The position numbers were made by a program, and so were the translations under genes. A DNA stretch of 63,638 nucleotides, counting the filler, from Folioceros fuciformis (Eukaryota), in assembly GCA_049999805.1 (NCBI GenBank). It is 9 parts of 9 records of this genome, joined end to end, with 100 filler letters (N's around TTAATTAATTAA, not from the genome) between each part and the next. Parts side by side here need not be neighbours in the genome. Positions count along the whole stretch, not along the records: positions 8,687 to 20,474 come from JBNGIO010004042.1; 8 more parts are not named here. One strand, written 5' to 3'. Shown here piece after piece: positions 9,106 through 59,417 of this stretch (position 1 is its first letter; every line of letters starts with the position of its first letter). Below the pieces are notes generated by a model. That model saw nothing but the letters and a program-made list of their open reading frames with translations, ran no database searches and was not told where the DNA came from.

Positions 9106-9712
9106 GTGAAACACCAGCAGTATTGTAGAGTATGAGCCATGTCGAGCGTTCTGCAGAAGACCGTCACAACTCACTTTCGAGCAGGAACCTTGCTAGCGAT
9201 ATTGGTCATTATCGCAAAAGACAACCCGCGCATTATCCAACCTAACTTATCCCAGCTAGGTTAGTGCCTGAGAGATAAGTGATAGGCAATATGAGGATAG
9301 GAGGAAGGGAATCTGAGGGCTCCCCCACTCTCTTCTGTGAGAGAAGTAATGAGAAGACTTGTGAGAGAAGACGACGTGTTCCCTCAGCATTAGTCTACAT
9401 GTTCACGAACTGGGGCCGAGCCGAGTGAAATGCTGGTCGTCGCCGACCAGATTTTGCTTTGCGCGGCCGGGATGTGGAGGTGTGGGGTGGAGTGGAGATG
9501 ATTGTATTTTCCCTTGTGGCGTTTGACTTGCGTGCATTTCCGTGGCCAGTTGTGTGAAACGGTGTAGGTTCATCACTTTAAAATCGCTGGCGGATTTATG
9601 TTATTTTCTTCACAGGTAAGCACTTGTGGAGTTAAGGAGCCCTACAGTCCCTCAGCGGTCTAGGAGCCCTGCAGTCCCGTGAGTGAGGTCTGTTGAGGTT
9701 CTATGTCCTTTC

Positions 9713-9773
9713 GGGCATTGGCGTTGGCATTGGCGTTGGCATTGGCGTTGGCATTGGCGTTGGCATTGGCGTT
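9713..9773. repeat. (GGCATTGGCGTT)n microsatellite, about 5 copies
   Basis: Read directly; lies 5' of the HD-ZIP IV start codon. Confidence 0.9.
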
Positions 9774-9797
9774 GTCTAAGCCGAGCGGACAAGCTCA

Positions 9798-12700
9798 ATG
9801 GGTCCTCCTAGACTTGGGCCACCTTCGTCACTACCACGTCCTCCGAAGAATGCGTACTCATCGCCGGGGCTGTCTCTTGCTCTGGTGGGTTTGCAGTTCT
9901 ATCGTTTCACTCCGTCGCGTGTATTGGGATTTTGCCCCATCAGCTAAGTAATGCATTTAAGCTGGGCTGCAGCCAAGTGGACCAGAGGGCCAACGGGAGG
10001 TGAGCCAAAGTGCTGAAAGTGAGCAAGCGAAGGCAAAGGAGGAAGAATATGAAAGTCGCTCAGGAAGCGACAACATGGATGGAGGCTCAGGTGACGACCA
10101 GGATATGGAACACCCACCTCGAAAAAAGCGCTACCACCGGCATACACCCCGTCAAATCCAAGAGATGGAAAGGTAAATATCTGGCTTTCTACACAATGTT
10201 GTTGTGTTTGGCTTGTTCGACACATGGGGTTGCTTCGATAAGCTGATGCCCTTTCTGTGCAGTCTTTTCAAAGAATGCCCCCATCCTGATGACAAACAGC
10301 GACAAGAACTGAGCAAAGAACTTGGTTTGGAGCCACGTCAAGTAAAATTCTGGTTTCAAAACCGCCGAACACAGATGAAGGTCAGCTAATGATCGGGTTT
10401 CTGGTCATCAGGACCTCGCAACTGCTTCCGTCCCTCGTGTTCATCAAGCAATATGAGTATGAATCTACGCGTTTTCTACTGCATCTCACTCGGATTTTGC
10501 ATGTAATGATCACAGACTCAACAGGAGCGGGCCGAAAATTCTGTACTGAGGTCAGAAAATGAGAAGTTGCGGTCAGAGAATGTGACATTGCGGGATGCAA
10601 TTAAGAATGCTGCTTGCCCGCATTGTGGTGGTCCCACAGCAATTGGTGAAATATCCCTTGATGAACAACAGCTTCGCATGGAGAATGTGAGGTTGAAGGA
10701 GGAGGTAAATGGTCTTCTGGACTACTGCTTAAAGTTTTATGTTGACGTGCTTCATGGGTGCAACTGTAGGAGAAGTTTCAGACGTGGGTATAATCTATTT
10801 GTGGTGGTATGTATTGGTATTGCAGCTTGACCGTGTATCAACTATTGCTGCCAAGGTTCTGGGGAGGCCCGTGGCTCCACTTGCACCCCCTCAACTAGGC
10901 TCATCCCTGGAACTTGCAATGGGTGGAAACTTCGGGATTGCGTCTGGGCCTTTACCTGGAAATGAATTCACACAGGGTCCTTCAGTGGTAGATGTGGCTA
11001 CTCGTCCTGGTGGCCTGACTGATGTTGAGAAGCCAATGGTTGTAGAACTTGCTGTCACTGCTATGGAAGAGCTTGTACAGGTAGCCCAAGGGGAAGAGCC
11101 GCTGTGGGTTCAGGGTAACGAAGGAACTTACAACAGAGAAACGCTGAATTATGACCAATACATTCATCAGTTTCCAAGAGGAATTGGACCACGGCCATTG
11201 GGTTTGAAGATGGAGGCAACTAGGGGGACAGGGATAGTTATGATCAATGGAATCAATCTTGTAGAAACACTCATGGATGCGGTATGTTAACAAGTTTCAG
11301 ATGATGGTGTTCTGAGCCGAGTATGTGGTGCGGTGCCAGTGACATTTGTCTCGTCTTTTGATGCAGGAACGTTGGATAGATATGTTTCCATGCATTGTAT
11401 CCAGAGCACTCACAGTTGACGTCATTGCGCATGGAGTTGCTGGCAGTTGCAATGGTGTGCTCCAGCTGGTCAGGTTTCCAGTCTCTGGGACCCTGTTTTT
11501 CAAGTCCCTGAGTTTCTAATTTTGCTGATGAATGTCTGTGGCCACTATCTCAGATGTATGCTGAGCTCCAGCTCTTGTCACCCTTAGTGCCCACACGTGA
11601 GATATTTTTTCTGAGGTTCTGCAAGCAACACGGGGAGGGTCTCTGGGCTGTTGTGGATGTATCTGTGGACAGTTTACGAGACAACCCGCCACCATCACTT
11701 ATGCGGTGTCGAAGGCGTCCATCTGGATTTCTTATTCAAGATATGCCAAATGGATGCTCCAAGGTACTTCTCAGGAAATTAGCTAATTTAGAAATGTGGG
11801 ATGCCTGACTTATACCATAACTAACTGAGAATTTCCAAATCCCTCCAGGTAACTGTTGTGGAGCACATGGAGTATGATGATAGGGGTGTGCACCAGATGT
11901 ATAAAGCTCTAGTGGGAAGTGGAATAGCTTTTGGAGCTCAGCGCTGGCTTGCTACGCTGCAGCGGCAGTGTGAGCGGTCAGCTAGCCTGTCAGCCTGCAC
12001 CATTTCATCTAGAGATCTTGGTGGTATGTCACCATCTAACCAGCCACTGCTATTCTGTCCTGCCTCTTCTTTGTGCTACTAGAATTTCTAGTTGGATAGG
12101 ACTTCTATGGTTGTTTGGGCCATGCATATGCCTGCAGTCTGGTCATTACAGTCTAGCCTTGCTGAAATTCGTGCTATCTGACTCTTTGTACCAATGGTGT
12201 AGGTATACCAACAATTGGACGACGCAGCATGTTGAAACTTGCGCAGCGCATGACAAACAACTTCTGCGCAGGTGTTGGTGCTTCTACAGTGCATACTTGG
12301 ACAACACTGTCAGGCAGTGGAGAGGATGATGTGCGTGTCATGACTCGGAAGAGTGTTGACAATCCTGGTGAGCCTCATGGTGTGGTCTTGAGTGCTGCAA
12401 CATCATTGTGGCTTCCAATTGCCCCACAAAGGGTGTTCGAATTTCTCCGCGACGAGCGTGTGAGGAGCGAGGTATCACTTTCGCTAGTCAGAAGCAGTTT
12501 GCTTACTTTAGGGACGTCTGATGGTCTTCTAAGTCTCTTTTTTTTCTGAAGTGTGTACAGTGTACAGCTGGAAATTTTTATTTTGCTGTTTGTCTCGCGC
12601 ATTGGGTTTTCTTGATGTCAAGTTAACGTGGAGAAACACTAACACGCCGTTGCTATATTATAATGTGTCTGTGTTGCAGTGGGATATTCTATCCAATGGT

Positions 12701-13264
12701 GGTGTAGTAGCTGAAATGGCACACATATCGAAAGGGCAGGACCCGGGGAATAGTGTGTCTTTACTTCGTGTAAATGTAGGTTCAATGCTGCAAGTGTGAT
12801 CTGGGATACTTTTTTGCCTGCCGTCATTGGTATTGTTGTTGATGGGATCCCTCATGCAGCTCCCACATGTGCAGCCTATGAATGCAGGTCAAAGCAACAT
12901 GCTTATACTTCAGGAAAGCTGTACGGACGTATCTGGATCTCTCGTGATCTATGCCCCTGTGGATATTCCGGCCATGCAAAATGTATTGCAGGGCGGTGAC
13001 CCTGCCTATGTTGCTCTTCTTCCATCTGGTTTTGCCATTCTTCCTGATGGGTCTGAGCCAAGGAGGCCGTTTGGATTCCAGCATGACAGTATGCATGCTG
13101 ACTGCTCGCCAACTGGAGGTTCTCTGTTAACTGTTGCTTTTCAAATTTTGGTGGGCAGTATTCCGTCGGCCAAATTACCATTGCAGTCGGTTGCTATTGT
13201 CAACGATCTGCTATCGTGCACAGTGCAGCGTATACGAGCTGCACTTCAGTGTCATGATCCTTAA
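9798..13264 (+). CDS. C4HDZ: Class IV homeodomain-leucine zipper (HD-ZIP IV, GL2/ATML1/HDG family) transcription factor
   Basis: Exon 1 (9798-9884) ends [10 protein letters not shown]. Then ESRSGSDN, homeodomain [47 protein letters not shown], zipper loop CPHCGGP, START domain ([21 protein letters not shown]) and SAD domain to TAA at 13264. Confidence 0.96.
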
Positions 13265-13373
13265 GTGGCTCCCAACACATGCCAGAGTTGCAGACCAGAT
13301 AGAGCTCGGTGAAGCTTCCAAGATTGAGCCAGGCAGCAAGTTGTGGCATGGGCCATGGAGGATGACTAGGTGA

Positions 13374-13532
13374 AAGTCAAGAACGCACCACATGCTCCTT
13401 GCGTTGTGGTAAAGTGGAAGAGAGGTCATGCACTCTAGTGTGCATGTGCACCACATGGTGTGGGTCATGTACACTAGGGCACCGTGCATGTGCTTCACCA
13501 CTTCGCAAGGGAAATGGTTCGGGCATTGACTT
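13374..13532 (+). promoter_or_regulatory. Structured 3'UTR element of the HD-ZIP IV mRNA (paired conserved motifs closing a long hairpin)
   Basis: AAGTCAAGAACGCACCA (13374-13390) and TGGTTCGGGCATTGACTT (13515-13532) resemble the two complementary 3'UTR motifs of seed-plant HD-ZIP IV genes. Nested complementary arms lie between them. Confidence 0.75.
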
Positions 13533-14589
13533 TTTTGGGGGTCCATGTTTTTTGTGAGAGACCTGAATCTAGTGATTTTCGCGTTTTCTGTTGTAGATCT
13601 TCATTGTAAGGATTAAAGACGTTACAAAAATACTTGAGACGTATGTACTCGTCCAAATTTGTGTGCTTTCTTCAGCGATGCCTTCAATTTTAGATTGGCA
13701 CTCCCATAACCATGAGGAATGAATGGTGTACTTCCGTGTGATATTTAAAATTGTTCTGAGTGAAAGTATAATCTAAGATTCGTATAATACGTTGTTAGCT
13801 TTGTGCTTTAGAAGTTTCGCCGGTCTACTTTGTGGTATAGGAGTTTTGCTCGTCAATAATTTCAGTGGACTAGCTTTTTGCCCAAATCTCGATTCTGCAG
13901 GGAGATCAAGGTTTGTGATTAAGGTTACATGAGTAAGAAGATAGGGTTTGTAATCAACATTACATGCACAAGATAGCATTTGTGATTATCCCACATGGGC
14001 TAAGGCTGTCCTGCGCTCTTTTGAGGGCTAGTAAGTTGCATTGTGGCTATAGAGATGCCACACCAAGGTCTACCCTATGGCAGAGGGGAGGGAATGTTAT
14101 GGTTGGTTGGATTATCTGGGGAGCAATTCCATGGGCACACCAATTAAAATTGCAAGTAATTTCATGGACACACCAAATCAATATTGCTAGTAATTCCATG
14201 AATACACCAATTCAATATTGCTACACTAGGGAGTTGTTAGAGGCTTTCAGAGTGAGGATGATTTTAGAGTCCATCCTAATTGGATCGCATTGCACAAGGA
14301 CGTTGGAGCTACCTATAAATCAATATCCACAAAGACTCTTTTCAACAAGCTCAGGGACATTCATAAATAGCTAGCTAGCGTTAATCCTTTTGTCGATTCC
14401 TTTTAAGGGTCTCTTTCCAACCTCAATGAGGTTTCAACGTTTGGCTTCGGCAAGTTTTCTTTCAACCTCAATGAGATTTCAATGTTGGGCTCCGCAAAGG
14501 ATGTAGCATGGACTCATGGCCAATGATGTTTCAGTGCTCATGGCCAATAAGGTTTCCATGTAAGGTTCCGTTAAGGATGCAACTTATTG

Positions 14590-15335
14590 AGTTTGATAAT
14601 TTAGAACTAAGCAACGTGTTTGATAATTTAGAACTAAGCAACACATTTGATAATTTAAAACTAAGCAACGGGTTTGATAATTTAGAACTAAGCAACGTGT
14701 TTGATGATTTAGAACTAAGCAACGCATTTGATAATTTAGAACTAAGCAACGTGTTTGATAATTTAGAACTAAGCAATGTGTTTGATAATTTAGAACTAAG
14801 CAACGTGTTTGATAATTAAGATAAGCAACGTGTTTGATAATTTAGATCTAAGCAACGCATTTGATAATTTAGAACTAAGCTACGTGTTTGATAATTTAGA
14901 ACTAAGCAACGTATTTGATAATTTAGAACCAAGCAACGTATTGAGATTGATTGTTGTAGGTAAAACATGTTGGGCTATGTTGAGGATGCGACTTTATTGA
15001 GTTTGATAATTTAGAACTAAGCAACGTATTGAGATTGATTGTTGTAGATAAAACATGTTGGGCTATGTTGAGGATGCAACTTTATTAAGTTTGATAATTT
15101 AGAACTAAGCAACATATTGAGATTGATCATTGTAGGTAAAACATGTTTAGGTTTTGTTGAGGATGCAACTTATTGAGTTTGATAATTTAGAACTAAGCAA
15201 CGTATTGAGATTGATCATTGTAGGTAAAACATGTTTANNNNNNNNNNGAGATTGATCATTGTAGGTAAAACATGTTTAGGCTTTGTTGAGAATGTAACTT
15301 ATTGCGTTTGATAATTTAGAACTAAGCAACGTTGG
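14590..15335. repeat. 27-bp minisatellite (TTTGATAATTTAGAACTAAGCAACGTG) grading into an ~88-bp higher-order unit
   Basis: About 13 tandem 27-mers, followed by ~88-bp units that each contain one 27-mer. Confidence 0.92.
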
Positions 15336-15699
15336 GCTCTGTTGAGGATGTAGCTTATGCAGTTTTATCATTTAGAAATAAACAACTTAGCAAGTATTCA
15401 AAATACCAAACTAAGGAAACTTAACAAGTACTTTGAATCCAAAAACTAAGAGCTAATTACTTAGAATCCAAAATACTAAGTACTCATAATCAAGATACTC
15501 ATCAAAAAAACTTAAAATGGCACTAAAAAAAACTAAGTACTAATAATTCAAATACTCATAATCCAAAAAAATACCTTAAAATGGGACTCCAAACTTAGCA
15601 ATTCATCTCTAAACGATACTTACTTAACACTTGACTTTATCTTAAGTGCTAATAGGACTCCAAACTTAGCAAGTGCTTGAAGTTAGGAAATTGAAAGCA

Positions 15700-16140: not shown

Positions 16141-17272
16141 GGCTTTAGGGTGTGGAGCATTGATGGTAGAGTGGTATGGAGTGAGAGCAATGATGGTAGA
16201 CTAGTGTGGGGCAATGGGCATAGGAGTGATGTAAGGACAATATGATTAAGCACTGTAGGAGGAATATGAGCAATGTAGGAGCGATATGATTATGTGGTGT
16301 AGGAGCAGTATAAATCAATAGTATGAGTGGTTTCGGATGAAAACAAGGAGTACCAGTTCTGTTTCGATTTTCTACTTTTTGAAACTTTGTTACCTATCAA
16401 TCCGCGTGATGAGGTTTTTTAGGGGTTTTTCACATATTTTATTTCTATTTAAGTATTTATTCTGCAAGGTCCCTATCCCTTTTTACAGGACTTTCTACGT
16501 GCCTCTATCATATGGCGCATAACACCCAACCTTTAGTTGTCAAGGACACCCCTTACTGGAGTGTGTTCATAACAAAATATTGGATTGGTATAGACCAATT
16601 GCTATATAAAACAATTACATTATTAATTCAATAATATTACAATAAAGAGCATCTACTAAGAAATGCCAACTATACTTAAGATATCATAAACAGACATGAC
16701 CTTTCACTATGGGACATAACCCTAAAGAAGGGGTAAGTAAACCAATTATGTCTTTGTACACACACATCATTAAATGTAGCTATTATTGAACCCTAATGAA
16801 TCAACACCTATTCTCATCACTCCCACTTGTTGATTATTACGGGTCGGTTAGTCTCCTCCTTCGTGAGTAGCATGTGGAGACTGTGAGCTGAACTGGGCTT
16901 CTTGCTAAAGTGTGTGTGTACTCTTGGTAGCGTAAGCTCCCGATGGAGCAGGATAGTGTGAAGGCAGCTTTGCGCAGGTTCACTATTTTAATAGCTCTCG
17001 TTTACGCCCATGCTAAAAAATGGTAAGGGTTTTTCAATATCGCTCATTTACGCATAGACGGAAGGAGTGCGCTGGTCTAACGGCGCACTCCTTCCGTCTG
17101 TGCGCTGAGTAGCTGGTGAACACCTAGATCGGGTCTGGGGAAAGTGCAATACAACTATTCAAAATGGTTTAGGGTTAGGTCGGCGCACACATAGGCCGAG
17201 TTTGGCGCTCTATATGAGCACCCCCACAAGGGTACTTATGAATAGCCAACCACAACTCTCTGCAAACAGTGC

Positions 17273-25466: not shown

Positions 25467-25770
25467 AGGTTAGAGTTAGGCTTCTTGGTTGGGATCAGAA
25501 CTAGGTCTGATTAGGGTTAGGTCAGACCTAGGCTAGGTTAGGTCAGACCTAGGTCAGGTTTAGTTTAGACCTGATTAGGTTAGGTTAGGTCAGACCTAGG
25601 TTAGGTTTAGTTTAGACCTGATTAGGTTAGGTCAAACCTAGGTTAGGTTAGGTCAGACTTAGGTTAGGTTTAGGTCAGACCGAGGTTAAGTTAGGTCATA
25701 CTTAGGTTAGGTTTAGGTCAGAACGAGGTGTAGGTGTGGCTTAGGTCAGAGAGAGATGGTTAGGTGGTTG
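25467..25770. repeat. TTAGG/TCAGACCTAGG low-complexity satellite
   Basis: Dense TTAGG pentamers interleaved with TCAGACC(T)AGG. Confidence 0.85.
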
Positions 25771-57302: not shown

Positions 57303-59417
57303 ATGGGAGTTTTTAGTCATGGGCTGTGGTCGGGTAGCCTGCCTGTGCGGAGCGCAGGAAACCAGGGAGATGCTCGAGCAAAAGTTAGAACATGTCTCAA
57401 GGCTGGAACGCTCTGTAGTGGAAGGTGTGTGCGTGGCGAACCCTTGTCTTGCAGCGTTACCTTTTCATGGCTCGAACTGGGGTAAATACCTCCTTGTTGT
57501 TGTAGTTGTTGCTGCATGATTGTGGAGATGGAGAAAGCAGAGAAGTTGTACGGATTCTGAAGAGCTGACAGTGATAAGGACTTGGCAGGATTTCGAAGGT
57601 TCATGACAGAAAAGCCGTTTCTTCTCCTGGTTTGTGTGTCTCCGAACGCAGTATCGAGAGGGCAAAACAATGGCGTCTTCCCGTCTTGGGATCAGCTCAG
57701 ACAGAGCTTCGTCACGAAGTAAATAGTGTAGCAAAAGCTTCGGAGACAATGCAAGTATTACAAAATGGAGGAGTAATTTACAAGGAGCATACGATAACAC
57801 GGGGGTCACTGCTGAACAGGCTGAAAGAAGATGCTTGTGTGGCTTTCTCTGGGTTGCAGGTTGCTGCTGTTGCCTCAGCTACTGTCCTGCTATTGCAACA
57901 GGGCCCTGCTTTTGCTGCAAATGGCCCTGTGCTGACGAGATATGCGCCTGTTGGGTTGGAGAGAACTCTGGTGGAGGCTTGGAATCTGGTTCGGGAAACA
58001 TATGTTGATCCCACTTTCAACCAACAGGATTGGGATACTAAACTGCAGGAGACACTCTCTCAGCTCACAGCCGCAAGTGAGGTGGAGGAAACCACGTCTC
58101 TGACGTCAACAGATTCTCAAGTTCTGCAGGTGAAGTCGGAGGACGATGACCAATCTGCAGGTGGAAAGCCATCCTTGAAAGAAATATCCAATGTTGATGA
58201 GGATGCAGGATACAAGAAGATCAGTGGCATGCTATCTAGCCTTGGAGATCCCTTCACTCGCATTGTGAATCCCAAAGAGTATCAAAACTTTCGGGTTAAA
58301 AACGATGGCACATTGCAGGGAGTGGGCTTAATGATTGCCATGCAGCAGGACTCTGGTAGGGTGCTCGTTCTGTACACAATAGAAGGGAGCCCAGCCGCCC
58401 GTGCTGGTATCCTCCCTGGTGATGAGCTGGTGCAGATAAATGACGAAGAGTTGACTGGGGTGAAAACCGATGAGGCTGCCATGAAACTCAGAGGAAAGGC
58501 TGGAACCACTGTGACTTTGAAATTTTCTCGGAAAAGCACTGAAGATGTTGCAGGTATGATCAGTCCTGCGTGTTTAACTTCTGTTGTAGTTTGACGTTCC
58601 CCTTTCTGATTGCCTGAGTTTTGGTTGTCCAGGTAGCGGAGAAGTGACCTCCCTGGTGACATTGCAACGTGAGCAGATCCACATAACTCCTGTGACTACT
58701 GTGGTGCTGAGTTATGCACCCGAGGGCCAGGAAATCAAGAAGGTGGGTTACATTCGCCTCAGCTCCTTCTCTCAAACTGCAGCTACTGACATGGAAGCAG
58801 CAATTCGCTCACTGGAGAAGAGAGAAGGCGTGGAAGGCTTTATATTAGATCTGCGGGACAACCCTGGGGGCCTAGTCAAAGCTGGGCTGGATGTTGCCGA
58901 AATGTGGCTGGAAGGAGATGATGTGCTTGTGAACACTATCGATCGGGAAGGCACTATCAGGCCTATCAGCATGGTACACAACCATGCCTTGACCAAAGAT
59001 CCCATGGTTGTGCTCGTGAATGAGAACAGTGCTAGTGCAAGCGAGATCCTGGCTGCTGCTCTACATGACAATGGACGGGCTGTGCTAGTAGGAACCAAAA
59101 CATACGGGAAGGGTAAAATTCAGAGTGTTACGCAGCTCTCCGATGGTTCAGCTTTGTTTGTCACAGTTGCCAAGTATGTGTCCCCTGCCCTCCATCCTAT
59201 AGACCAGGTTGGGATTGTTCCTGACGTCATGTGCACTCCAGAGAAGCTCCAGACCGAGCCTCCGCCGGATTCCCAGGAGTTAAAGGCTCAGGTGCTGAAG
59301 AGAATCATGATGATGAATAGCAAGGACAAGTTGCCCGGCTTGCTCGAGACTGATTCATGTGTCCTGTTAGCAGAACACCAACTAGGTGAGCAGCTTGCGA
59401 TTCTGAAGAATTCGTAG
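57303..59417 (+). CDS. CTPA1: Chloroplast C-terminal processing peptidase CTPA1 (S41A); exons ~57303-57481, 57652-58553, 58633-59417
   Basis: RTLVEAWNLVRETYVDPTFNQQDWD, LGDPFTRI, PDZ GVGL..GSPAARAG, GYIRLSSFSQ, LDLRDNPGG, catalytic SASASE and TYGKGKIQ. First exon inferred from splice phase. Confidence 0.93.

Follow-up and report, generated by a model that had tools for sequence, protein, structure and literature searches.

A conserved hairpin in the 3'UTR of a hornwort class IV HD-ZIP gene: a further copy of a land-plant regulatory RNA element

The window, by which we mean the whole stretch of 63,638 nucleotides from Folioceros fuciformis that was analysed, carries a gene of the class IV HD-ZIP (C4HDZ) type, and a long hairpin lies within its 3'UTR. 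The features of both are listed in Table 1. The Pfam domains Homeodomain, START and PDF2_C were detected on three of the four host-gene exons scanned. A contig from a public sequencing run (X1), identical to the window, skips the ten GT..AG introns of the gene, which is therefore transcribed. The same contig spans positions 12875-13719 of the last exon unbroken and without a single difference, so that the hairpin belongs to the spliced RNA, whose 3' end lies 187 nt or more past it. Spliced contigs from three related organisms (X2, X3 and X12) cross the hairpin as well and reach positions 13670, 13616 and 13687; they carry 28-38 substitutions over the last exon, and among the differences listed for them there is no indel within 13374-13532. 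Past their matching part, the X2 and X12 contigs continue for 95 diverged letters. An earlier note on this DNA had counted a poly(A) site upstream of 13532 as evidence against its reading of the hairpin. For the assembled isoform, which extends to at least 13719, this objection does not apply; poly(A) sites and minor isoforms are invisible in assembled contigs.

Table 1. Features of the C4HDZ gene and of the hairpin in its 3'UTR (positions in the window)
Feature	Position	Strand	Basis
C4HDZ (class IV HD-ZIP) coding region, 11 exons, 763 aa	9798..13264	+	Pfam, splice joints, translation
3'UTR, minimum extent; true end probably somewhat further	13265..13719	+	public run contigs
Conserved motif 1 (CNS1), H1 5' strand	13374..13390	+	string match, fold, published alignment
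GAA side of conserved internal loop, opposite GGCA 13522-13525; candidate recognition site	13381..13383	+	function inferred
Helix H2 5' strand, pairs with 13504-13510	13397..13403	+	pair probability 0.99-1.0
Helix H3 5' strand, pairs with 13497-13501	13406..13410	+	pair probability 0.97-1.0
Purine-rich 5' bulge	13411..13421	+	predicted fold
Helix H4 5' strand (core CATGCAC), pairs with 13484-13496	13422..13433	+	fold; like sequences in published copies, by eye
Apical helix H5 (13434-13455 with 13459-13478), 3-nt loop	13434..13479	+	fold; like helix in published copies, by eye
5-nt 3'-side bulge between H5 and H4	about 13480..13484	+	predicted fold
Conserved motif 2 (CNS2), H1 3' strand	13515..13532	+	string match, fold, published alignment

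The number of exons equals that described for liverwort, hornwort and lycophyte C4HDZ genes, moss genes being intronless (PMC3773374). Exon 4 has its closest matches in Marchantia (65%) and mosses, the best relatives being C4HDZ proteins, and in a quick tree of 36 proteins, none of them from a named hornwort, the host protein branches outside the liverwort pair and outside the moss clade. One C4HDZ locus was found in the genome; PF25797, START and motif searches of the assembly, which may be incomplete, revealed no second C4HDZ gene with the element. Two pieces of an LCIB-like gene, consistent with introns, were also detected in the genome (E 2.6e-5 and 1.9e-4), and LCIB is reported from hornworts and from no other land plants (PMC8075897). 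By these sequence data alone, a hornwort origin is likely. In hornworts, C4HDZ is described as an old sex-chromosome gametolog (PMC12409103), a status which may explain why the host protein differs from the published PcC4HDZ1. Run X3 yielded, besides the window-like contig, a second, diverged C4HDZ transcript (also at 10267-10381 and 11889-12298), which departs from the window after motif 1 (13391) and whose next 30 letters match PcC4HDZ1 at 29 by eye. This transcript may represent the other sex-chromosome gametolog, or equally a mixed sample.

Several further observations concern the surroundings of the hairpin. An ATG at 9703 opens a 70-codon frame which runs to 9884 and into exon 2 and overlaps the main start at 9798 out of frame; judged from the sequence, it is a possible repressive upstream ORF. 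It includes a hexamer repeat at 9714-9774, for which the relatives show a length difference of 18 nt. A stop in the main frame at 9777 removes the N-terminal extension annotated in liverwort and moss proteins. The 5' leader also holds an exact 11-nt copy of the motif-2 core at 9710-9720, which is rare by chance (one in 222 stretches, namely this one) and is altered by C>T at 9712 in two relatives; on this change and on duplex energy (-8.7 vs. -17.4 kcal/mol) it was set aside as a long-range partner of motif 1. Downstream of the gene, 13 copies of a 27-nt unit form a tandem array (14591-15386), followed by a near-perfect inverted repeat of ~35 bp at 17040-17120, which belongs to a repeat family with 50 genome matches and lies upstream of DUF7869 and reverse-transcriptase fragments. 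A TTAGG-rich fold-back array occupies 25511-25735. The window strings together short contigs rich in repeats, and this would be compatible with an accessory or a sex chromosome. At 57578-59414, PDZ and S41 peptidase domains occur on two adjoining open frames in which no intron is evident; they make up a CtpA-like gene, which may have been transferred or may be bacterial DNA that entered the assembly.

Secondary-structure prediction folds the 159 nt at 13374-13532 into one unbranched hairpin of -74.7 kcal/mol, starting 110 nt past the stop codon TAA (13262-13264). None of 200 dinucleotide shuffles was as stable (z -6.6), and the single hairpin of ~160 nt about 110 nt after the stop that the earlier note had proposed is thus borne out. 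Folding the complete 3'UTR or the complete last exon yields the same structure, with pairing probabilities of 0.89-1.0 in the fold of the whole 3'UTR, and the 15 best structures, all within 0.9 kcal/mol, are near-identical, i.e., there is one dominant fold. Of 650 sampled 159-nt stretches with a GC content of 47-57%, only one folds at least as well, and it belongs to a repeat that the genome matches 50 times; without regard to GC content, 10 of 1487 sampled stretches equal or surpass the hairpin.

From the base upwards, H1, H2 and H3 are followed by a purine bulge of 11 nt, then by H4, a bulge of 5 nt on the 3' side, H5 and a terminal loop of 3 nt. H1 is formed by motif 1 with motif 2 and is broken at a C-U mismatch and at the GAA/GGCA loop. 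An alternative fold, less stable than the optimum by 1.9 kcal/mol, lets part of the purine bulge pair with 13491-13495. All ten arm strings listed in the earlier note are present, beginning at 13374, 13515, 13397, 13504, 13412, 13498, 13427, 13484, 13433 and 13466, and four of the five pairings it had drawn between them appear in the predicted structure. The fifth, AAGTGG (13412-17) with CCACTT (13498-503), was rejected: its register has a pair probability of ~0.005, and forcing it raises the energy by 3.3 kcal/mol. Its competitor is GTGGT (13406-10)/ACCAC (13497-501), which is the register of the published folds too. The hairpin is a real, transcribed and conserved structure.

Motif 1 and motif 2 each occur exactly once in the genome, and they occur together; matches with one mismatch (4 and 2, respectively) stay at the level of reversed-pattern controls. 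A scan of metagenome contigs with a 16-mer of motif 1 gave at least 117 loci. Among the loci listed, 16 have a PDF2_C exon upstream of motif 1, and for 13 of these 16 the listed matches include motif 2 (up to three mismatches) 23-133 nt downstream, while the remaining three end 26-197 nt after motif 1. Among the listed loci without a PDF2_C exon, motif 2 was present in six and absent in 95 of 101, and all six have less than 600 nt of upstream sequence. The resulting 19 loci (13 + 6) comprise, among the matches listed, 15 distinct elements of 57-167 nt in six gene groups, and all 15 fold with z-values of -2.8 to -6.6. A covariance model built from ten of the 15 elements, with the window excluded, found 13372-13534 as its sole match in 81,950 bases (E 1.3e-13), motif 1 being common to the model's members by construction, as they had been selected with the 16-mer. 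Gapped motif scans of prokaryote genomes and of viral contigs gave no match each, as expected. With the host gene, both motifs in order and the covariance-model match, the assignment to an ancient element of HD-ZIP IV 3'UTRs made in the earlier note holds.

The two inner helices can be followed in the same set. Anchors for H2 and H3 were located in 13 of 16 elements (window included) and were lacking in three. Within the 13 anchored elements, all six H2 positions and four H3 positions are paired throughout, and the fifth H3 position is paired in nine. The outer pair of H2 is C-G in nine and U-A in four elements and that of H3 is G-C in nine, A-U in three and G-U in one, changes which come mostly from one gene group. 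In the Folioceros copy, CCTTG/CAAGG and GTGGT/ACCAC are present and predicted to be paired; from our reading of the aligned columns, these would be the four 5-nt motifs of PMC3773374. Among the seed-plant-like metagenome elements, L024 and L048 with their groups keep the inner CCTTGC/GCAAGG and GTGGTG/CACCAC helices, which have been described mainly for non-angiosperms (PMC3773374). On a further contig, L016 (G+C 0.44), motif 1 and the words CCTTGC and GTGGT accompany a PDF2_C exon that is diverged (42% identity); the contig ends 197 nt after motif 1 without motif 2 and may hold a long-loop copy from a non-flowering plant.

Within H1, the pairing is partly a matter of construction because the elements were selected on the motifs. 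Over 16 elements its top pair is A-U in three, U-A in seven and U-U in six, and the loop strand opposite GAA reads GGTA in eight, GGCA in four and GGAA in four. In the published alignment, read by eye over 32 rows (four degenerate rows of 36, HDG7, FWA, HDG8 and Coleochaete, being left out), the outermost H1 pair is A-U in nine, G-C in seven, G-U in nine, U-A in one and broken in six, and the GAA of the loop is GAG in eight published rows. RNAalifold predicted 16 pairs on a 10-sequence MAFFT alignment in which one group was out of register, and none of them showed a two-sided change; in MAFFT alignments the inner helices fall out of register owing to variable loop lengths. By the earlier note, a lack of covariation together with a lack of reporter effect would weigh against its reading; pair-preserving changes do occur at the outer pairs of H1, H2 and H3. 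Judged by these sequences, covariation is present at the helix edges. The core of H1 is too invariant for covariation, which points to sequence-specific recognition.

Earlier papers on the HD-ZIP IV 3'UTR element reportedly include those of Ingouff (2003), Nakamura and Javelle (2011), as cited by Zalewski et al. in 2013. The latter reported the stem-loop, with its two motifs, from liverwort, hornwort, moss, lycophyte and fern genes (Zalewski et al., 2013, PMC3773374). As bryophyte copies including one from a hornwort have been in print since then, the notion of a seed-plant element newly met in an uncharacterised lineage falls, and a stem extended locally in Folioceros is not supported, the published folds of Psilotum, Cycas, Phaeoceros and Marchantia already measuring ~119-183 nt (PMC3773374). 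The Folioceros hairpin is a further copy of an already described element. Outside the two motifs and the four 5-nt motifs, most of the element's sequence is said not to be conserved (PMC3773374). In the open-access literature, no covariation study and no study of bryophyte C4HDZ UTRs was found beyond PMC3773374 and two papers on rice, and the element is not among the 16 motifs of a plant structured-RNA screen according to the accessible part of PMC12218528.

An effect of the element has been measured in rice. In the ROC8/URL1 gene, a C-to-T change in motif 2 slows mRNA decay, raises reporter output and causes a dominant phenotype, nascent transcription being unchanged, and 5' RACE placed cleavage on both arms, namely within or close to CNS1 and at the 5' edge of CNS2 (PMC8133684). 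A 50-bp deletion in the same ROC8 UTR raised the protein about sevenfold and left the mRNA unchanged (PMC7680540), so that the two studies disagree on the level of control, decay or translation. As neither of them, in the accessible text, used compensatory mutants, structure and linear sequence have not been separated in rice (PMC8133684, PMC7680540). The accessible sections of PMC3773374, PMC8133684 and PMC7680540 report no protein binding to the element. Given that the element is in print for all land-plant lineages and its effect measured in rice, the finding as first stated adds little. Its use may lie elsewhere: a single-copy hornwort C4HDZ gene with a compact, apparently complete element is a convenient object for finding the trans-acting factor.

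We consider it probable, at roughly 0.65, that in this hornwort the hairpin represents the C4HDZ 3'UTR element of land plants, a rod closed by motifs 1 and 2 which lowers the output of its own mRNA in cis and is most likely bound by a protein. Its presence in the mRNA, a predicted fold far better than chance and H1-H3 common to distant plants are what the sequences show. A protein would recognise the GAA/GG(U,C,A)A loop and the nearly invariant basal stem around it, as is suggested by a sequence held far more tightly than pairing alone needs, and the bound protein would recruit decay or translational repression. The upper helices would set the register and may carry a second site, and a dosage-sensitive transcription factor would be kept low as a result. 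Repression in hornworts is extrapolated from rice.

For the upper stem, comparisons were read by eye from the dot-coded alignment in the supplement of PMC3773374. By this reading the upper stem, against our expectation, is not lineage-specific. The 5' apical arm (13428-13453) matches Marchantia at 22 of 26 positions, 13426-13442 agrees with the conifer row PmC3HDZ4 at 16 of 17, and the stretch 13484-13501 recurs without a difference both in PmC3HDZ4 and in moss PpC4HDZ3; identities of this kind have chance values of 1e-3 to 1e-7 even when 22,500 offsets are allowed for. Sequences like H4 were seen by eye in published liverwort, moss, lycophyte and conifer copies and a helix like H5 in MpC4HDZ1, SmC4HDZ4 and PmC3HDZ4, with two pairs changed on both sides in SmC4HDZ4. 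The published Marchantia fold shows a 1x5 loop where the Folioceros copy has its 5-nt 3' bulge. Many other published rows are without an upper-stem match, and the authors' alignment does not line up those stretches; the H4 words are absent from all 15 seed-plant-like metagenome elements. Descriptions of H4 and H5 were found neither in the accessible text of PMC3773374 nor in other open-access literature.

As apical helices and 3' bulge match liverwort, lycophyte and conifer copies, the ancestral element may have been a five-helix rod. We advance only tentatively, and regard as more doubtful than not, the full version of this idea: an ancestral land-plant element of five RNA helices whose H4, H5 and 3' bulge persisted from hornworts and liverworts through to certain paralogues of lycophytes, mosses and conifers and disappeared from flowering-plant copies. 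In it, the basal loop would fold into a 3D module of non-canonical kind, and the upper stem would provide another input (a protein, small-RNA release or a ligand) of a plant-wide structured cis-regulator absent from Rfam, with the Folioceros copy near the ancestral state. Should the conservation of the upper helices over more than 400 million years prove genuine, the element would surpass its published description in complexity and merit an Rfam model.

Plant miRNA duplexes are expected to measure 20-24 nt with at most 5 mismatches and at most 3 nt of asymmetry, and the usual MFEI threshold for a pre-miRNA is ~0.85. The hairpin has an MFEI of 0.91, and 42 of 466 candidate duplexes passed a miRNA-type test with the same limits (20-24 nt, ≤5 mismatches, ≤3 nt asymmetry), 38 of them apical and four, all of 20 nt, in the lower stem. 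These values, the rice cuts on both arms (PMC8133684) and the likeness of the 5' apical arm to Marchantia noted above by eye would suit cleavage by DCL1 or another double-strand RNase, by which the mRNA would be destroyed in cis or a small RNA freed from the apical stem. We nevertheless judge this improbable: the conserved basal motifs give no passing duplex of 21, 22 or 24 nt, those that pass in the apical stem extend nearly into the 3-nt loop, and the 5-nt bulge falls within the best-conserved apical stretch. Lengths of 57 to 167 nt occur among the elements, with H4 words in none of the 15 seed-plant-like ones, no Rfam family reached the gathering score in the window (a mir-297 match, 21.7 of 90 bits, was discarded as chance), and no small RNAs were found from the Arabidopsis loci in section 29 of PMC3773374, where a role of small RNAs is argued against.

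Distinctly less probable is that a small RNA from another locus targets the motifs and that the stem modulates its access, in the way proposed for OCL1 of maize. PMC7680540 cites a 24-nt RNA with complementarity to the 3'UTR of OCL1, but the same paper, as far as accessible, found no matching small RNA for rice Roc8, and in the Folioceros genome there is no second exact copy of a motif and the one-mismatch matches do not exceed the controls. Moreover, such a target site leaves the two complementary motifs and the inner helices unexplained. About as improbable, and marginally below it in our estimate, is a riboswitch-like sensor whose conserved loops and bulges bind a metabolite. The internal loop is conserved in sequence and, by eye, the upper helices and bulges are conserved in non-flowering plants; the possibility was raised in PMC3773374, which itself goes on to argue against it. 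An unbranched rod with one dominant fold, a highly variable length and the lack of any expression platform that we could find speak against a switch. Very remote, finally, and the least probable of all is conservation for a role at the DNA level, or an upper stem that is a neutral fold-back such as a transposon remnant. The neighbourhood is rich in repeats, with a transposon-like hairpin at about 17040-17120, but the 3'UTR hairpin has one match in the genome, on which ground a transposon origin was rejected, and its sense strand folds 13.5 kcal/mol better than the antisense strand (-74.7 vs. -61.2 kcal/mol), with G-U pairs. Pair-preserving changes exist, and in rice the motif-2 mutation left nascent transcription unchanged (PMC8133684). 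The cis-acting, probably protein-bound element is thus the reading we prefer.

Compared with known systems, plant pre-miRNA hairpins are alike in size and folding energy; unlike them, the element lies in the 3'UTR of a coding gene, has a conserved base that is too interrupted, a 3-nt apical loop and no Rfam match. In the sarcin-ricin, loop E or bulged-G motif the order is sheared A-G, U-A, bulged G, purine-purine (PMC8450098, PMC6633198), with which the 3x4 purine loop between helices, GAA facing GG(U)A, agrees. The U of the motif's G-U-A triple, however, is a C in Folioceros (U 8, C 4, A 4 over 16 elements), and the Hoogsteen pair, A-A or A-C in sarcin-ricin, would be G-A or G-G in the element. 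For the bulged-G motif there is a single record, noted as unusual, of G-A pairing at the last position, and U-A is given as isosteric with C-C, the accessible text making no such statement for C-A (PMC8450098, PMC6633198). With the central U varying and GAA replaced by GAG in the eight published rows, the element was not filed under sarcin-ricin, the conserved U and the Hoogsteen pair of that class being absent. The C or U of the loop could equally pair with the G of GAA, and the likeness of the basal loop to the bulged-G motif, seen in sequence, is a lead only.

The rice ROC8/URL1 element has the same motif pair, and there genetic and reporter evidence of repression is available; it lies ~650-700 nt after the stop, compared with 110 nt in Folioceros (PMC8133684, PMC7680540). 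The closest counterpart is the CNS1-CNS2 stem-loop of C4HDZ genes (PMC3773374), which is alike in host gene, intron count, position in the 3'UTR, both motifs and basal pairing, and likewise in the inner CCTTG/CAAGG and GTGGT/ACCAC helices and the size range. The published hornwort copy, PcC4HDZ1, differs from that of Folioceros in protein and upper stem and, unlike in the published account, the likeness of the Folioceros copy to those of liverworts, lycophytes, mosses and conifers extends, by eye, into the upper stem.
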